Origin: an uncultured bacterium
GTDB taxonomy: Bacteria > Lernaellota > Lernaellaia > Lernaellales > Lernaellaceae
Length of the DNA stretch: 37,703 bases
Reading direction: 5' to 3'
Assembly (NCBI GenBank): GCA_964534375.1
Contig: CAZHPN010000039.1
Location: 1-37,703, forward strand
Positions 2,394 through 8,936 of the stretch are shown in pieces. The first letter of the stretch is position 1. Each line of letters opens with the position of its first letter. The notes beneath the pieces are model-generated. The model did no database searches. It was not told the origin of the DNA and worked only from the letters and a program-made list of their open reading frames with translations. The position numbers were made by a program, and so were the translations under genes.

Positions 2394-4448
2394 CTACGTC
2401 ATCCCCATCGCCATGATCGCCGCTTTCGTGGGCGAATCATAAAACTGCCATTGGATCGCCGTGAGGATCGCGTCGGGAACGTCGGCGAGGTCGCGCTTGT
2501 TCTCGCTGGGAATCAAAATTCGCTTAGCGCCGGCTTCCACGGCGAGCTGCATGCGCTCGGGAAGCGAGGAGACCTTGAGCAGCATGCCCTGCACGCTCAT
2601 CTCCCCGAGCACAACCGTTCGGTCGAGAACCGGCTTTTCCAGAACGGCGGAGACAAGCGAGATGAAGAACGCGACAGCCGTTTCCGCCCCCTCTTTCGCC
2701 TGATTCAGATTGATCGCTTGGACCGTGAAATCGTAGGCCTTGAGGTCGTGGTCGATCCCCAGGTTCTTGATGTTCGCTTTCAAGTAGGCATCGGCCGTCT
2801 TTATTGCTTCCTTCATTTTGCTGGATAAGTTGCCCAACGGTATGATGCGGCCTGAGCCCCGGTTCATTTGCGTCTGAAGCAGGAACAATGCGAGGCGATA
2901 TTCGCTCACATCGCTGCCGACAGTATAGATGCTTCCCGGGGGGAGGCCGCCCTCGGTGATGATCGTGGCGCCTCCCATCTCCGGCAGTCTCACGAACGTC
3001 TCTTGGCCGCTTTCCCTGTCGATATACGAGAAGCTGGTGTCCCAATACTCGAGCCCGCCCATTTTCTTGAGCTGCTCCTTCACGCGTCGGCGCATTTCCA
3101 TGGCGTACGCGAGATACTCCTCCAGTTCCTCTTTCGACACTTCGCCGTCGGGGTTGAGCAACTTGATCAGGCCGGAGACCGTCTTGCGAACCGCCTTTTG
3201 GTCTCGCCCGCCGAGGTGCGGGCCGAATTTGAAATGGCGTTCGGCGAAATCGGCGTAGCCGCTCTTGCGGAATTCGCGAAACACCTCGGCGAGGTAGTCG
3301 GTAACGAGGCCGAAATGGTCGGTGTAAGCTGCGTCCGAGGTTTTCTGAAACTCCCACCCGGGCACATAGGCGTGGATGCGGTCGTAGAAAGCCGTGTCCA
3401 TTTCTTTCGGCAGCGGGTAGAATAGATGGGACGTGCGAACGATCGTTTCGATGTCGCCGTCGATGTTGCCGACGAACACCACCGAACCCTCGGCGGTGAT
3501 GATGTCCCTGCCGCGGCTGAAGGCGCCGTCCTCCATGTAGCCCTTCATGATGTTGATGCCGTTCTTGTCGGTGAAATGAATGCCGGCGGCTTCGTCAAAG
3601 GCGACAACGTCCCACAGGGCGACGAGTCCCCGCTGCCCGGTGCTGAGGTTCACGAACATCTGCGCCGTCGTCGTCTGGCCGCCGGAAATGAGGTGCGAAT
3701 ACGGGCTGATCTGCTGGTAGACAAAGCTCTTGCCGGTTCCCCGCGGACCCAACTCGATGGAGTTGAAGTTCTTTTCCACCAGCGGCAACAGCCGCAGCAT
3801 GTAATGAAACTTGCGCCTTTTTGTGTAATACGGATGGTTCGGCTCGTAACCCATCGAGCGCATGATCAGGTCGAGCCACTGCTCGCGGCTGAAACGCCGC
3901 CGGGCCTCGACGAAGCGATCGACGTTTCGGGTGGAAAGCTGGATCGGCCGCAGGCTTTCGACGACGAAGGGGCGATTTTGACCTTTGAAAACGAAGGAGT
4001 CATCGTAGCGGAGCGTGATCTCCGCCCAGATCCCACCCATCAACAGGCGGTCGTGGGCGCGAATTTCTTTCTCGTCGATATTGATGTAGTCGAGGTCGAG
4101 ATTGGCAAGACGCGCCCAGTATTTGTCGTGGGTTTCGACCAGGCGCACCGAAATCTTGTCGATAATCTCGTAGGTCGTATGCTGTTTGATGGCCGACTTC
4201 ACCGCTTCGCGTTCGTCGGGTTTGACATATTTGCTGGCCAGCGTTTCCCTGACGAATTCCAAGCCTTCGCGGATGGCCTCGTCGTCGGTGGACGCGCAAT
4301 ATTTGCCGAGCAGGAACTCGATCACAAACGCCGGCACGCCGAAGACGCTGCGCATGCGGCGCAGGAGGTCTTTGCGGACCACCAGGCCCGGAAAAACCTC
4401 GTTGGCCAGTCGATCCAGTTCATCGAGTTCGAACGGCTGCTCGTTCAT
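2394..4448 (-). CDS. brxL: BREX AAA+/Lon-like protein BrxL
   Basis: 684 aa. N-terminal FPGLVVRKDL and VPAFVIEFLLGKYCA, Walker A ELGPRGTGKS, Walker B VAFDE, C-terminal Lon-like domain (VVLGEMSVQG, GAKRILIP). Last gene of the BREX operon, after pglZ. Confidence 0.93.
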   Translation of the reverse strand: MNEQPFELDELDRLANEVFPGLVVRKDLLRRMRSVFGVPAFVIEFLLGKYCASTDDEAIREGLEFVRETLASKYVKPDEREAVKSAIKQHTTYEIIDKISVRLVETHDKYWARLANLDLDYINIDEKEIRAHDRLLMGGIWAEITLRYDDSFVFKGQNRPFVVESLRPIQLSTRNVDRFVEARRRFSREQWLDLIMRSMGYEPNHPYYTKRRKFHYMLRLLPLVEKNFNSIELGPRGTGKSFVYQQISPYSHLISGGQTTTAQMFVNLSTGQRGLVALWDVVAFDEAAGIHFTDKNGINIMKGYMEDGAFSRGRDIITAEGSVVFVGNIDGDIETIVRTSHLFYPLPKEMDTAFYDRIHAYVPGWEFQKTSDAAYTDHFGLVTDYLAEVFREFRKSGYADFAERHFKFGPHLGGRDQKAVRKTVSGLIKLLNPDGEVSKEELEEYLAYAMEMRRRVKEQLKKMGGLEYWDTSFSYIDRESGQETFVRLPEMGGATIITEGGLPPGSIYTVGSDVSEYRLALFLLQTQMNRGSGRIIPLGNLSSKMKEAIKTADAYLKANIKNLGIDHDLKAYDFTVQAINLNQAKEGAETAVAFFISLVSAVLEKPVLDRTVVLGEMSVQGMLLKVSSLPERMQLAVEAGAKRILIPSENKRDLADVPDAILTAIQWQFYDSPTKAAIMAMGMT

Positions 4449-4455
4449 GCCCGCC

Positions 4456-7038
4456 TCACATGTCTCGACCGACCGTCAGCGTGATGCCGCCTGCGGGAAA
4501 TTGCTCCAAAGTCTCAACGTCGCGGATGTCGAGTTCGAGCAGTTCCCCTTTCGCAAAAGACGCCGCCGAGTGGAAAAAAAGTTTCACAACCTGTTCCCTG
4601 TTTTTGCCATCCAGACGCACTTCCTTCGGCTTGCCCGCCAGCACGGACCTGAGTTCGCCGTCGGCATCTTTGCGCCGCACATCCAGGGACAAATTGCGGC
4701 CCATTTCCGCAAAGAGACCGAGTTGGGTTCCCGTTTCGGTTGCCGTCGAAACCGGACTGAGGACAACTTTGACCGCCGTTTGCATCAGCTCAAGAGCCGG
4801 CAGCACAACCTCGACGCCGATCCGCTTTGCCTTGGCGGCATGGCCGCGTGAAACGAGATGCGGAATAATTAGTTCCTGAAGAGAAGCGCCGCCGTGTGAG
4901 AAAGATTTTTCGCACTTGAAGAACGCCAGCCCCGGCGGGACAGCGACGAAATATCTCGCATCCCAGGCGAACGGAAAGCGCGCCAACGGGATATCCGCCT
5001 CGGCGGAAACCAGGGCGAAGCGTTCCTTCAACACGAGGCGCCATTCCTTCGGGAAGGGAACCTCGCTCGGCAGCCTGGCTTCGTCGAGCAAGATGAAACC
5101 GTGATCCGTGACGACATGAACTCGCGGATAGCCCCACCGGTGCAGATTACGGATGAGCCGGCCGAGCCGGTCGATTTCGGGCTGCACGTGGCGGGTTAGA
5201 GCGCCTGCGTTGCCGTGTCCGATATGATCCACATCGTCGTGGCCGAAAACGACCAGTAGCTCGCCGAGTCCGTCCGGCGCTTCGGGCGCCGCTTCCACCT
5301 CGGAAATCTCTCGGCAGTCGGCGCCGAAAGCTCGGAGCAAGGCGATTCGGTTGTCTCTGACAAAGGTGTCCTTGCCGTTGACGAGCGGATGGATGGAATT
5401 GTCTTTGAGATCGACCGCGATCGTGGCGCCGGCAAGCGGCAGCAGCGCCGTCATGCCGATGGCGGTGACCGTGGGCAAGACCGCGAGCAGCGGCTCGACC
5501 TCGACCGCATGACCGCGCAGCAATTCTTTGATCGCCAGGGCGCAATCGTAACGGAGCGCGTCGACGATCACGACGGCCCGCCGGCCGCTCGCCTGCCAGA
5601 TTGCGCGCTCCAAATGGGGCGTGACATCCGGAATCCCGGGAATTTCCAGTCGGCCCGATTCCGCGAGCCGTTTGAAGAAAGAGTCGTTGAGCGCCGTCGC
5701 GTAGTCGGCGTACGCCCGGTCCGCCGCCTTTGCCACGGACGGCAACGTTTGTTCATCGGCTCGTTGGCGGAGGTCAAGGTGACGGCCCTCGATGGCGCCG
5801 GCATTTTCCACATACTTCCCGGCGAGCGCTTCGGTCGTAATCGCCCATTCAAGTTTTCGCTCGGCTTCGGCGCACACCCGGACGAAGGCGCCAAGATCGC
5901 GGAGGAGATCCCACGCCCCCACCGGCGCGGGGCTTGCCTTGGCAAACTCGGCTTCGCGCGCCAGGAGTTCGCCGTAGATTTTGAAGTACTCTTCCACGGC
6001 CGATTTCCTGGGCGCGGCCTTCTCAAAGTCCGAAATCACCTGGCCCCAGCGCAGCCGAACCAGGTGCGGGAACCCGAATGAAATCCCCGGCCGGCCCCGC
6101 GCCCACGACGTGAGATCGATCTCGGTTTCGACGGCGGCAATCCAGCGATCCCAGGCCTGGCGGTATTCGGAATCCCGGAGCCATCGTTGCAGCAGGTGAC
6201 TGTGCTGCGACCGCAGCGCCAAAGGCGGCAAGCGATCCGCAAACGGAAAATCGGCCGGTTCTCGATAGCCGAGGAACGTTTCGGTCAGGGCCAGCGTCGC
6301 GACCAAATCCAGAATCCATTCGGCCGGCGCCCGCACGGGCTGGTCGTAGCCGTAGCGTTCGCGCACCATATCCAGGAACTCGCGGTCCAGAGCGCTCTCT
6401 TGCAGCTTCGCCCACTCTTCATCCGGCTCCATCGCCAGATCGAGAATCGTTTGCTCGACATCGCCGATCAGCAACAACTGGGCCGACTCGGCCGTAAGCG
6501 AGCGCGCCCAGAACACCGGGGGGCGGTCGGCGAACTTGGCGACGTATTTGGCCAGCAGTGAGTCGCGCCCGCCGTCGTAAAGACGGCGCTGCTCGGCCGG
6601 ATTGTCCGGCAGCGGCACATCGGCCTGACGCAGCAGGCTGAAGAGCGTCGGGCGCTTGCCGCCGAGGCGCCAGATCACCCCGGCGGTCCGGTATTCCTCC
6701 AGGAAGTCGAGGCGCGGGCGCCCGTCGCCGTCCGGATGGTCGAGTCGGTCCTCGGACATCGGCAGGTACAGCACGAAGCGCAACCCGTCGCGGTCGCTCG
6801 GCGGCGACTGGGCGGCCAGCGTATGCACCCGATGCTTCAACCAAATCTGGCCTCGCAACTTTTCTTCGTCATACGCCAGAAGAACGAACGGCGGCCGCGG
6901 CATCCCCGCCAAGTGGGCTTGCAACGCGGGCAGCAGCCGCGCGAATTCCTGCTTCTCGTCGAACCAGAGGCACACCTGGGCGCGTTTCTCGTGCTGAAAA
7001 CGCTGCTCGAGCTGGCTCACCAGGCATTCCAGAATCAT
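4456..7038 (-). CDS. pglZ: BREX alkaline-phosphatase-fold protein PglZ
   Basis: 860 aa. PglZ motifs IVDALRYD, LPTVTAIGM, VVTDHGF, FSHGGASLQE. Start overlaps the upstream stop (ATGA at 7035-7038). Confidence 0.93.
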   Translation of the reverse strand: MILECLVSQLEQRFQHEKRAQVCLWFDEKQEFARLLPALQAHLAGMPRPPFVLLAYDEEKLRGQIWLKHRVHTLAAQSPPSDRDGLRFVLYLPMSEDRLDHPDGDGRPRLDFLEEYRTAGVIWRLGGKRPTLFSLLRQADVPLPDNPAEQRRLYDGGRDSLLAKYVAKFADRPPVFWARSLTAESAQLLLIGDVEQTILDLAMEPDEEWAKLQESALDREFLDMVRERYGYDQPVRAPAEWILDLVATLALTETFLGYREPADFPFADRLPPLALRSQHSHLLQRWLRDSEYRQAWDRWIAAVETEIDLTSWARGRPGISFGFPHLVRLRWGQVISDFEKAAPRKSAVEEYFKIYGELLAREAEFAKASPAPVGAWDLLRDLGAFVRVCAEAERKLEWAITTEALAGKYVENAGAIEGRHLDLRQRADEQTLPSVAKAADRAYADYATALNDSFFKRLAESGRLEIPGIPDVTPHLERAIWQASGRRAVVIVDALRYDCALAIKELLRGHAVEVEPLLAVLPTVTAIGMTALLPLAGATIAVDLKDNSIHPLVNGKDTFVRDNRIALLRAFGADCREISEVEAAPEAPDGLGELLVVFGHDDVDHIGHGNAGALTRHVQPEIDRLGRLIRNLHRWGYPRVHVVTDHGFILLDEARLPSEVPFPKEWRLVLKERFALVSAEADIPLARFPFAWDARYFVAVPPGLAFFKCEKSFSHGGASLQELIIPHLVSRGHAAKAKRIGVEVVLPALELMQTAVKVVLSPVSTATETGTQLGLFAEMGRNLSLDVRRKDADGELRSVLAGKPKEVRLDGKNREQVVKLFFHSAASFAKGELLELDIRDVETLEQFPAGGITLTVGRDM

Positions 7039-8936
7039 CGGACCACCTTCGCCACGCGCAACGCTCCGGCTTTCTCCCAGGGTTCGATGTTGACCTTGAC
7101 GCCGTCATCGAGGTCCGGGTCCCACCCCTTCGGCAGCTCCTCCGCCTTTTTCCAAGGGGTCAGGATTCGGAAATCGTCCTCGCCGCCCTCTTCGCCTTCG
7201 CGGCGACCTTCCTGGATCGCCTGAAGCTTGCGTTCCAGCGCGTGCGTTTCTTCGATCCTGGTCTGAAAATCCAGCCGGTCGTCGGTGCGCCCGGCCTTGT
7301 CGGCAAGCGCCGCCTCGCGCCGGAAATTCTCGATGGCGTCGCGCAGATAAGTCGACCGCAGCTTCGCGAGCCGATTCTTGTCAAAGCGGTGGTAATGGAC
7401 GAGTACGCCGAAAGCCGCCGGCGCCGTACCTTGCGCCGACGCGATGTGCCAAAAGATCGGCCGCCGCTTGTAGAGCGAGCAATGGTATTCGAAGTAGGCG
7501 TTTTCGAGCCATTCCTCGAGGCTGCTGCACCGGCGATAGCCTTTCACGTTTTGTTTCAATTCGTTGACGATTTCCACCTCAACTTGATTGGCGTCCCGAT
7601 CGGGAAAGAACTCCGCCAATTCACCCCTGACCCGATCGACAAGGCGTGGCTCGTTGTTAATCGGGTCGAAGGGAACCATGCCGTCATCAGCGGCTTCGAC
7701 GACGCGTTTCACCGCATAGGAGAGCAGCCGCCAGATATGCTCCATGCGTTTCTGTTCAAGCGATTTCCCAGCAAGAACTGACCACAGTATCTCCCTTGGG
7801 CGATCTCCGACTGCTTCTTTGACGACGCCCCGCATGTGGTCATTCAACCCATATAGGCTAAACACGTGGTCCTCAATTTCAGCAAATTTTTCGCATATCT
7901 CGATCTCTGTCTCCCTTTCGCGCCGTGCAAGCGTGTCCAAACGCTCACCAATTGTTGGCGTGGCACTGTTGCCCAAATATTGCCGATCAACGATCCAGGC
8001 CGATTTGAAGTGTGTAGATACCTCATTCCCGTCGTCCCAGTTCATCTTAGAGTCATAAATCGAACGTGCGCGTTCAGACAAAAGTCTTTGTTGCTCGGTA
8101 CGGGTGGCCGGGATAGGAATCCCCTTAATCACGTGTAGTTCCCAACGAGCCCCCATCTCTTTTCGAGATAGCCTCGCTCTCATTATGTACTCAGCGACCG
8201 TTGAATTGGCGACTGCAGAAACAAACCACAAATCGTCGGCGTTATTCAAAAGAACGGCTGGACCTTTATCGGAAAATACGCAGTCTGGCGGCAAATACCG
8301 CATACTAAATTCACCACCAGCACGCGGCCAAGTGAGTCCCTCGCGAAAATATAACGTGCTGTCGCGGAGACGGTGAAATGCTCGCTGCGCCTCAGGCGAC
8401 CAGTCGATCACAAGATTGGCATCGAAGTAAAAACGGCTGAAAGCCCCGCCCTTGTGGAGTGTTTTCCAAGGGCGAATGTCCCGTGTCGGTGACACCTCCC
8501 AATGATATCGAAGGAAAGGTTCATCGGGCCTAATGATGACACCTTGAACAACCGTCGCAACGGAGCCCAAAGCTGGGGCATTACTCGTAAGAGAAGCGAC
8601 CAGTGCGACGCGATCATATGCGAAGGGAGAACTCTCTAACGCTGCGAAATCCCTCAAGGGGACATCATATCGAACCTTATCTATCTGCCCGCGTAGGGCC
8701 TTTACAAACACTGCTTCGCGATCGGCCGCCACACCAGCGATTGAAGGCAGTGACTGTAGATCGAAGAAAGCGGCGCGTTCCACCTCGGTGACAACGTAAT
8801 ATGCATGATCCGCTTGTTCGTATGTTGTTTCGATGCCTTCCCGCGCTTGGGTCGCCTGAATAGTTGACACCATGAGCTTTCGTCTCAAGTCGGCGTCAGC
8901 GAGGATATCCTTTACTTTAATGCGTTTACTTCCCAT
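7035..8936 (-). CDS. pglX: PglX C-terminal half (target-recognition + C-terminal domain) with an N-terminal putative Fic-antitoxin segment
   Basis: 633 aa. From about residue 55 it shows PglX TRD-type motifs (SPFAY, FLRYHWEV, KGG..SRFY, YFREGLTW, RYLP..VFSDKG, ANS). The tail matches PglX C-termini (YKRRPIFWH, DLDDGVKVNIEP). No SAM-binding or NPPY motif. Residues 29-34 are TQAREG. GGAGA RBS upstream; start overlaps the Fic gene end by 11 bp. Confidence 0.85.
   Translation of the reverse strand: MGSKRIKVKDILADADLRRKLMVSTIQATQAREGIETTYEQADHAYYVVTEVERAAFFDLQSLPSIAGVAADREAVFVKALRGQIDKVRYDVPLRDFAALESSPFAYDRVALVASLTSNAPALGSVATVVQGVIIRPDEPFLRYHWEVSPTRDIRPWKTLHKGGAFSRFYFDANLVIDWSPEAQRAFHRLRDSTLYFREGLTWPRAGGEFSMRYLPPDCVFSDKGPAVLLNNADDLWFVSAVANSTVAEYIMRARLSRKEMGARWELHVIKGIPIPATRTEQQRLLSERARSIYDSKMNWDDGNEVSTHFKSAWIVDRQYLGNSATPTIGERLDTLARRERETEIEICEKFAEIEDHVFSLYGLNDHMRGVVKEAVGDRPREILWSVLAGKSLEQKRMEHIWRLLSYAVKRVVEAADDGMVPFDPINNEPRLVDRVRGELAEFFPDRDANQVEVEIVNELKQNVKGYRRCSSLEEWLENAYFEYHCSLYKRRPIFWHIASAQGTAPAAFGVLVHYHRFDKNRLAKLRSTYLRDAIENFRREAALADKAGRTDDRLDFQTRIEETHALERKLQAIQEGRREGEEGGEDDFRILTPWKKAEELPKGWDPDLDDGVKVNIEPWEKAGALRVAKVVR

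Follow-up and report, generated by a model that had tools for sequence, protein, structure and literature searches.

A type 1 BREX operon with a fic gene inside its split pglX

The DNA analysed here, referred to as the window, comprises positions 1-37,703 (37,703 nucleotides, nt) of contig CAZHPN010000039.1 from assembly GCA_964534375.1 of an uncultured bacterium of the Lernaellota. From position 2394 to position 17027, its minus strand carries a complete type 1 bacteriophage exclusion (BREX) operon, in which Pfam, PADLOC, and NCBIfam profiles identified all six BREX-1 genes, brxA, brxB, brxC, pglX, pglZ, and brxL, in the usual order. The methyltransferase gene pglX is present as two pieces that are parted by a fic gene, giving the arrangement brxA-brxB-brxC-pglX_N-fic-pglX_C-pglZ-brxL. 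This study concerns the N-terminus of the second piece, PglX-C, which an earlier note on this DNA, made from the sequence alone, had proposed to be an antitoxin-type partner of the neighbouring Fic protein fused to PglX.

All genes and features of the operon lie on the minus strand. The gene pglX_N (9786-11909) encodes 707 amino acids (aa) comprising the N-terminal, methyltransferase half of PglX, recognized by the Pfam family Eco57I (E 3.2e-20) and covering positions 2-604 of the NCBIfam model BREX_1_MTaseX. The fic gene (8926-9789) encodes 287 aa matching Pfam Fic (E 2.7e-13) and the PADLOC family PDC-S04 (E 9.7e-33), and the pglX_C open reading frame (ORF; 7035-8936) encodes 633 aa, beginning with the residues that the earlier note had listed. 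The pglX_N and fic genes overlap by 4 nt. As the note had described, pglX_C lies directly 3' of fic and overlaps it, the measured overlap being 11 nt; a ribosome-binding site of the GGAG type is found 8-9 nt upstream of the PglX-C ATG codon. A promoter and terminator scan of window positions 6800-12200 gave no signal exceeding the shuffled expectation. The remaining genes, brxA (16215-17027), brxB (15675-16214), brxC (11906-15715), pglZ (4456-7038), and brxL (2394-4448), were assigned with Pfam and PADLOC.

An additional conserved module at the N-terminus of PglX-C

The segment of interest, residues 1-54 of PglX-C (8775-8936), contains the sequence TQAREG (T29-G34; 8835-8852), which matches the Fic inhibitory motif (S/T)xxxE(G/N); both intervals are exactly those that had been proposed. 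The body of PglX-C (residues 55-633; 7035-8774) is the target-recognition and C-terminal half, matched by PADLOC PglX profiles with E-values down to 6e-42 and by BREX_1_MTaseX over positions 644-982 and beyond. The BREX_1_MTaseX model joins PglX-C only from position 644, which falls at residue 78, and the 17 PADLOC profiles that match PglX-C, 15 of them named PglX, start at residue 70 at the earliest. In two PADLOC profiles built for split C-terminal halves, positions 10 and 23 fall at residues 70 and 86, which places the start of these profiles near residue 61. Residues 1 to about 60 are therefore extra to PglX. The statement that residues 1-54 do not resemble PglX was thus borne out, since no NCBIfam or PADLOC PglX profile reaches them; PglX-like sequence, which had been said to resume at AAFFDL (residues 55-60), does resume nearby, but its actual onset is later, at about residues 61-78.

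Searches of residues 1-91 against Pfam and NCBIfam returned no family, the sole NCBIfam rows being TATA-box-protein noise with E about 0.1. The module (residues 1-65) and one free-standing member of its family had no match in PADLOC, and 25 family members gave only noise in PHROGs, the best being phrog_27754 with E 0.01 for two proteins. A PDB profile match to 9dee_A, a 'serine hydrolase', with E 7e-4 over 39 residues was taken as chance, and the PDB sequence search contained no Fic antitoxin. The genome from which the window derives holds a single copy of the module.

A six-residue motif is by itself weak evidence, as the earlier note had conceded. The eight BREX proteins total 4889 aa and contain the pattern [ST]xxxE[GN] three times, corresponding to about 0.03 occurrences expected per 54 aa. 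TQAREG rises above chance because it is conserved across the family: among 72 representatives, Q30 is present in 72, E33 and G34 in 70 each, R32 in 68, T37 in 69, and A42 in 71, and the motif falls in the most conserved stretch of the family. In one locus (L030), the E-G pair is replaced by the variant E-N. An AlphaFold2 (AF2) model of the module, computed from the 72-row alignment (predicted local distance difference test, pLDDT, 89), shows helices at residues 8-13, 15-32, and 39-61 that form a helical hairpin, with E33-G34 terminating the first long helix (15-32). The nearest structures in the ESM Atlas were hypothetical proteins of 52-64 aa from tailed phages (TM 0.60-0.74). The module is a domain in its own right and is under strong constraint.

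It was also considered whether the module might be a small DNA-binding domain of helix-turn-helix-like type, or another unrelated domain, whose motif is a chance match. One database source labels a family member 'MarR family regulator', HlyU-type regulator profiles match weakly (E 0.5), alignments with VIA returned rows to the arms of HU/IHF-type proteins (Z about 5), and the chance expectation for the motif given above can be counted on the same side. The HlyU, HU/IHF, and MarR matches are nevertheless all at noise level, the modelled fold is a hairpin of two long helices and not a compact three-helix bundle, and the motif occupies the most conserved stretch of the family. Together with the fic association, the homology, and the complex model described below, which also speak against it, these observations make such an origin highly improbable.

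The module family is associated with fic across bacterial phyla

With residues 1-65 as query, 52 small proteins of 55-87% identity were retrieved. A profile search of 1.84 billion cluster representatives yielded 375 matches at E<=1e-3, 229 of them at E<=1e-10, and the lengths of the 150 matches listed were mostly 50-120 aa. Standalone homologues, which the earlier note had suggested looking for, are thus numerous, many being free-standing copies of 50-70 aa.

A scan of genomes, one per species, identified 52 loci holding the module, distributed over Myxococcota, Acidobacteriota, Pseudomonadota, Actinomycetota, Verrucomicrobiota, Gemmatimonadota, Spirochaetota, and other phyla. In 44 of the 52 loci, a fic gene of the same type ends right at the start of the module on the same strand, in the context brxC-pglX_N-fic-[module-pglX_C]-pglZ-brxL. 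Four further loci (L007, L009, L030, and L014) keep fic with an insertion or partial decay: two extra genes separate fic from the module in L007 and L009 and one in L030, and L014 is decayed. L041 and L042 are remnants, and in L054 the copy stands free within a phage-like region, beside a family-A DNA polymerase and an SNF2 helicase.

Over the 36 complete loci, mean identity to the window fell from 83.6% for BrxL and 74.0% for the module, through 67.4% for PglX-N, 64.6% for BrxC, 62.7% for Fic, and 57.8% for PglZ, to 48.5% for the body of PglX-C. The module was conserved above Fic in 36 of 36 loci.

Some loci show further features. Between fic and module-pglX_C, the two Chromatiaceae loci (L007:2800-5800 and L009:2788-5861) carry a gene for 153 aa and a gene for 871-900 aa, and the Puniceicoccaceae locus (L030:5386-5805) carries a gene for 139 aa. 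The genome of the window encodes a second, unrelated Fic protein of 348 aa on contig C131, and the BREX remnant in L041/L042 has next to it a similar Fic, also of 348 aa, that carries a T-x-x-x-E-G-N motif in cis.

The BREX-embedded Fic has a class-I-type fold and no inhibitory helix of its own

In the model of the Fic protein (pLDDT 76), residues 78-280 form a class-I-type Fic fold. In structural alignments with VIA, this part of the model spanned the toxins of three known class I modules end to end: VbhT with Z 15.3 and a root-mean-square deviation (rmsd) of 3.4 over 180 aligned residues (model 78-278 to chain 8-196), EcFicT with Z 14.5 and rmsd 4.0 over 183 residues (model 78-280 to chain 10-198), and Fic-1 with Z 13.7 and rmsd 3.8 over 176 residues (model 78-280 to chain 10-197). 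The best structural match was FICD (Z 17.1, rmsd 2.8, 173-175 aligned residues), with alignments that begin at FICD residue 253-255. The alignment to SoFic begins at residue 92, and that to NmFic stops at residue 170. The cis inhibitory glutamates of these proteins are E234 in FICD, E73 in SoFic, and E186 in NmFic (PMC3667792, PMC13327609). The FICD and SoFic alignments thus start past the inhibitory glutamate, and the NmFic alignment ends short of it. Neither an N-terminal nor a C-terminal cis inhibitory helix was found in the BREX Fic by structural alignment, and the pattern [ST]xxxE[GN] does not occur within it. With a class-I fold and neither a cis helix nor a motif of its own, the BREX Fic would therefore require a partner acting in trans.

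The family closest to the BREX Fic is PADLOC PDC-S04, which matches it over residues 85-272. The helix spanning residues 98-119 in the AF2 model carries the sequence RREDEG, which is invariant or nearly so in the 29-row alignment and belongs to the segment RREDEGVARA (residues 103-112; 9454-9483) of helix alpha1. This helix was considered as a cis inhibitory helix of the class II type and rejected: its place in the alignments is past the cis helices of both FICD and SoFic, it corresponds to alpha1 of class-I toxins, and it is the docking surface in the complex model described below.

N-terminal to the fold, residues 1-77 (9559-9789) form an extra, conserved, Trp-rich domain with invariant positions including W6, R7, W8, E10, D12, and G14-R16. 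The prediction shows short strands there, at low to middling confidence, and Pfam and structure searches gave no match. This domain could be the part of Fic that makes contact with PglX-N or with some other protein of the BREX system.

The module is homologous to small proteins encoded beside PDC-S04-type fic genes

A metagenome scan with the Fic alignment yielded five more loci of the BREX type (L083-L087) and 75 distant relatives of about 215 aa with 25-40% identity (L088-L162). The four of these non-BREX relatives that were tested were all full-length matches to PDC-S04 (E 1e-67 to 1e-73). When the six reading frames of the relatives' loci were searched with a hidden Markov model (HMM) of the module family, the hits were small opposite-strand ORFs that adjoin the 3' end of fic or extend into it. 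A second HMM was built from 20 of these ORFs and applied to the 72 loci in which at least 150 nt of sequence downstream of fic were available. A small ORF was present at the same place and in the same orientation in 62 of the 72 loci, and in 54 it was matched at E<=1e-3; 34 of these 54 lie outside the set used for building the model, and 41 contain the strict pattern [ST]xxxE[GN]. Neither the Ser nor the Glu of the motif varies in either alignment of Fic-adjacent ORFs. Small homologues with S-x-x-x-E-G are thus present beside similar fic genes in 54 of 72 loci; the earlier note had advised a search for standalone homologues in such places. The placement of the partner 3' of fic is likewise shared by these relatives, but their ORF runs on the opposite strand. 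In one example, the small ORF (L135:1845-2027, minus strand) lies beside fic (L135:1208-1864, plus strand); the ORFs range from 45 to 70 aa.

Profile-profile comparison with hhalign supported the relationship. The module family aligned with the Fic-adjacent ORFs at a probability of 96.4% (E 1.1e-9, 52 columns, motif in register), a value that is partly circular, and to that extent counts against the case made below, as the set behind it (A5) had been picked through weak hits of the module's own HMM. Against an independently chosen set (A6), consisting of 30 members missed by the module HMM, the 30 aligned columns (residues 7-36) likewise kept the motif in register, at a probability of 74.4% (E 2.7e-5). 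The module is therefore homologous to small proteins that are genomically paired with Fic.

The family of Fic-adjacent ORFs comprises at least 1296 proteins, which are unnamed or annotated as 'hypothetical', three being mislabelled 'Fic family protein'; none has a Pfam family, and two ORFs tested matched no PADLOC family. PDC-S04, which is listed as a single gene, is likely a two-gene Fic toxin-antitoxin module with an unusual tail-to-tail arrangement. Among the papers listed for it, PDC-S04 turns up only in surveys.

Predicted complex of Fic and the module

The complex of Fic (29-row alignment) with residues 1-62 of PglX-C (22 rows) was predicted in three runs and compared with three controls. 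The complex scored 0.91 (runs 0.91, 0.87, and 0.91), and the best of the three controls scored 0.00. The mark applied is reached by 58 of 80 solved complexes and by 2 of 110 mismatched pairs, counts that are rough as our own alignments were used. The runs agreed in at least 90% of contacts, with a partner pLDDT of at least 82 and 97-108 confident contacts. As complexes of this kind have already been solved and the model may remember them, this result shows likeness to a class-I antitoxin pair and not binding.

On the Fic side, the predicted interface comprises residues 102-120 (alpha1), residues G217, G219, R220, F223, and I224 of the signature loop, residues 227-250 (alpha5 and alpha6), and residues 278-285. 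On the module side, it comprises residues 3-53, including 24-35, and T29 touches R220. The contacts of lowest predicted error join Fic residues 105-113 to module residues 25-30 and 41-49, and the alpha1 segment RREDEGVARA is the predicted main docking surface. The solved AntF/Fic-1 interface uses the same helices, alpha1, alpha5, and alpha6 (PMC13327609). Placement of the motif at the Fic active site, which the earlier note had made a test of its proposal, was reproduced in the model alone, where, with controls, residues 24-35 are set on alpha1 and the signature loop.

A probable antitoxin-type Fic partner at the N-terminus of PglX-C

Because of the homology to Fic-adjacent ORFs, the gene neighbourhood, the absence of a cis helix in Fic, and the complex model, we conclude with moderate confidence that residues ~1-55 of PglX-C are an antitoxin-type ('alpha-inh') Fic partner, joined to the half of a split BREX methyltransferase that recognizes the target and encoded beside a class-I-type Fic without an inhibitory helix of its own. 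The central claim of the earlier note thus gains support from association, homology, and modelling.

Several observations weigh against this conclusion. The motif lies on a helix, though its S/T position is less constant than the rest, T29 being present in 44 of the 72 representatives and replaced in the other 28 by a hydrophobic residue, I (15), L (8), M (3), or A (2). The module does not belong to the established antitoxin families VbhA (PF18495) and YhfG (PF10832): neither Pfam model matched the module or any of 38 family members at E<=10, and a genome search with the VbhA model did not match the locus. In hhalign, the module family aligned with E. coli YhfG alone at E 0.2 and with a YhfG alignment at E 0.25, with the motif in register and without significance. 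The likeness to VbhA that had been proposed for the module accordingly holds at the level of motif and topology, but not as sequence similarity. Foldseek (pdb) and VIA-align (wide) searches with the module model, whose fold is very small, returned only generic helical hairpins, with no Fic antitoxin among the rows listed. The Fic-adjacent ORFs, moreover, are convergent to fic, an odd layout for a toxin-antitoxin pair, and are themselves only putative Fic partners. For comparison, Pfam VbhA matched one of 20 Fic-adjacent ORFs (E 0.21), and two Fic-adjacent ORF families aligned with YhfG/EcFicA at E 0.002 and 0.0046 with probabilities of 14% and 8%. The VbhA family was found in none of 17 species genomes of the window's phylum, a search in which control genomes gave no match either.

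A further group of adverse observations concerns the Fic signature HPFREGNGRTAF (residues 212-223; 9121-9156), which keeps every canonical position except the last Arg, replaced by Phe223, and so departs from the complete signature HxFx(D/E)GNGRxxR of canonical AMPylating Fic proteins. This second Arg is Phe in all 29 aligned sequences and in all five further copies of the BREX type (34/34), whereas 72 of 75 non-BREX relatives keep Arg at this position; the BREX-type Fic shows no variation at His, Glu, Asn, or the first Arg. In solved systems of classes I to III, the inhibitory Glu and the gamma-phosphate of ATP compete for the second Arg (PMC3667792), and in AntF/Fic-1 this Arg also binds a Ser of the antitoxin, its mutation weakening binding (PMC13327609). 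With Phe223 in place of the second Arg, E33 has no such residue to pair with, and the canonical inhibitory contact therefore cannot form as in the textbook case. The BREX Fic may accordingly not be a canonical AMPylase or toxin, and the substitution points to an altered co-substrate or reaction.

These features would also suit a different course of events, which we consider unlikely but deserving of serious attention, in which the module descends from a Fic partner and binds Fic without inhibiting it. Fic would then have been re-purposed as a permanent BREX subunit, either as a working enzyme, de-modifying or other, or as a bridge between the PglX halves. Fic proteins that depart from the motif consensus are held to have other activities, AnkX being an example (PMC3667792), and the uniform Phe among otherwise invariant catalytic positions, the added conserved 77-residue domain, and the large predicted interface all agree with a subunit role. 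However, an Ala substitution of the second Arg in Fic-1 abolishes neither AMPylation nor toxicity (PMC13327609), so loss of the second Arg alone does not mean loss of toxin activity. A permanent subunit shares all of its binding evidence with an antitoxin-type partner and differs from it solely in consequence.

The last adverse observation is a single locus, 1 of 52, in which a split pglX keeps the fused module with no fic present and about 80 nt between the halves (L053:3778-7935); a search of its genome bin (12.7 Mb) with the window protein as query found no Fic of the BREX type. Such an occurrence is what the earlier note had named as evidence against its proposal. It would suit a role of residues 1-54 as a docking peptide that rejoins PglX-N with PglX-C and has nothing to do with Fic, the adjacency of fic being incidental, and so would the presence of the module in every split-PglX locus of the clade. 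The L053 module, however, is 59% identical to that of the window, compared with 70-77% in fic-bearing loci of similar PglX-N divergence, and its end branch in the tree described below is 0.78, compared with about 0.02-0.2 for the other BREX rows. This single case is consistent with constraint having relaxed once fic was lost, and rapid evolution of the module where fic is lost is not what a docking peptide predicts. Other split PglX-C profile families begin at about residue 61 without such a module, phage contigs that lack BREX hold plentiful free-standing homologues, the small ORFs beside fic are homologues of the module, and the complex model places the module on Fic. We therefore regard a pure docking function as very unlikely.

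Homologues of the module in phages

A scan of IMG/VR identified 23 loci, consisting of two BREX loci, one BREX remnant with a C-terminal stub of Fic (L056), and 20 other forms, which are mostly ORFs of 50-100 aa, some in contigs of 205-463 kb. Their surroundings were analysed in 16 non-redundant contexts, with five near-duplicate loci dropped and 58 of 174 ORFs, each shorter than 105 aa, left out. Among the 116 ORFs within 3 kb of the phage copies, none had a Fic domain at E<=1e-4, and five large phage records, two of them estimated to be complete, contained no Fic domain either. The neighbours include T7-type RNA polymerase, integrases, DNA polymerase A, and SNF2 and UvrD helicases. A tblastn search with the module and a free-standing member found no match in 50,697 cultured phage genome records or in PLSDB plasmids.

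In three loci (L062, L063, and L065), the module is fused to further domains. One 93-kb viral contig has it embedded in an ORF of 2524 aa (L058:2866-10440), and in another locus (L063:5842-7593) it forms the N-terminus of a phage protein of 583 aa, with the E-G core decayed to G-G. A protein of 222 aa (P0156) joins it to an alpha/beta-hydrolase domain. In L062:5740-10228, a module gene with a Cys-rich N-terminal extension lies just 5' of genes for an integrase and a T7-type single-subunit RNA polymerase. The early region of T7-like phages is the usual place of anti-restriction genes, and the placement in L062 matches that position if the region is early.

A maximum-likelihood tree of 141 rows and 61 columns, from which L041 and L042 were left out, was weakly resolved. 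The BREX-fused modules form one clade, containing 50 BREX rows and one fragment of 54 aa (support 95/89). A free-standing sister joins this clade (97/88), the resulting group is nested in the free-standing family (95/87), and the Fic-adjacent ORFs fall outside. The direction of transfer is not settled by this tree because its root is the midpoint only.

The orphan phage homologues may be mimics that silence Fic modules of the host, which we offer as a lead and not as a finding. A DarG2-like antitoxin of a chimallivirus has been described as a phage-encoded anti-defence protein (PMC13309987), and our literature search on phage-encoded Fic antitoxins as anti-defence proteins found no mimic directed at Fic.

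Proposed mechanism and its implications

In the mechanism that we propose, the 11-nt overlap of fic and pglX_C would couple translation, the two proteins being made together. The module would dock its helical hairpin on helix alpha1 of Fic and lay the T29-G34 turn over the signature loop, as the complex model predicts, and would so keep the active site occupied. Fic would thereby be tethered to PglX-C and either silenced or switched in activity, and its output would be coupled to the state of PglX-C, for example to recognition of phage DNA or to attack by a phage inhibitor. Binding, inhibition, the target of Fic, and its release are steps that we infer.

On a broader scale, we tentatively suggest, as a possibility that falls short of being probable, that this is a widespread BREX subtype, its class-I Fic being linked by a fused antitoxin helix to the half of PglX that recognizes DNA. 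Recognition of phage DNA, or a phage inhibitor of PglX, would free or switch Fic as an executioner or as a back-up in the manner of a guard, and phages, jumbo phages included, would carry orphan modules as silencers of Fic in trans that also target Fic of the PDC-S04 type.

To our knowledge, how BREX stops phage replication is not known. A known toxin-class enzyme attached to the BREX specificity subunit provides a concrete and testable effector or guard hypothesis. If the proposal is true, the fusion of an antitoxin to part of a second defence system would offer a simple means, at the molecular level, of linking two immunity layers, and the orphan phage modules would be a new anti-defence family. 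The large family of orphan homologues in uncultured phages (375 cluster representatives at E<=1e-3) provides candidates for anti-defence proteins directed at Fic, and PDC-S04 appears to be a two-gene system with an unannotated family of small partners.

Comparison with known systems

Half-length PADLOC profiles exist for PglX, and split forms are hence already known; a split BREX operon in Brevibacterium and a Fic/DOC gene within a type I restriction-modification locus have both been discussed (PMC9881135). Compared with unsplit and other split type 1 BREX systems, the operon of the window differs in having fic inside the split and a Fic-partner module on the C-terminal half. Full-text searches of the literature on BREX with PglX or Fic returned no account of either feature.

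The BREX Fic resembles the toxins of the class I modules VbhA/VbhT, YhfG(EcFicA)/EcFicT, and AntF/Fic-1 in its fold and in the absence of an inhibitory helix of its own. Its putative partner is, like theirs, a small helical hairpin whose first long helix ends at E-G in (S/T)xxxE(G/N), and, as with AntF, it is modelled on alpha1, alpha5, and alpha6 and over the signature loop (PMC13327609). The overlap of fic and pglX_C has the same length, 11 nt, as that of yhfG and fic in E. coli K-12 (L082:5454-5464), although the gene order is opposite. Unlike the class I antitoxins, the BREX partner is not free but forms the N-terminus of a 633-aa BREX methyltransferase half; fic comes first in the window, no similarity to VbhA or YhfG is detectable, and the BREX Fic lacks the second Arg and has an extra N-terminal domain of 77 residues.

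PDC-S04, a single Fic gene for about 205-220 aa, is the nearest family, and its metagenome members have an adjacent ORF homologous to the module. In contrast to the BREX Fic, its Fic keeps the canonical HPFREGNGRxxR (72/75), and its partner is free-standing, convergent, and overlaps the 3' end of fic. The occurrence of free-standing module homologues in phage contigs without a cognate toxin parallels the phage-encoded antitoxin homologues with an anti-defence role (PMC13309987), although such a role is only putative for the module homologues.

Finally, class II and class III Fic proteins such as FICD/HYPE, SoFic, and NmFic share with the BREX system an inhibitory-type helix that is covalently attached to a larger polypeptide, but in BREX the helix is attached to a different protein, PglX-C, instead of to Fic. 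Our results thus largely support the view that known logic appears here in a new arrangement, an antitoxin-type Fic partner carried on PglX-C and conserved over many phyla.

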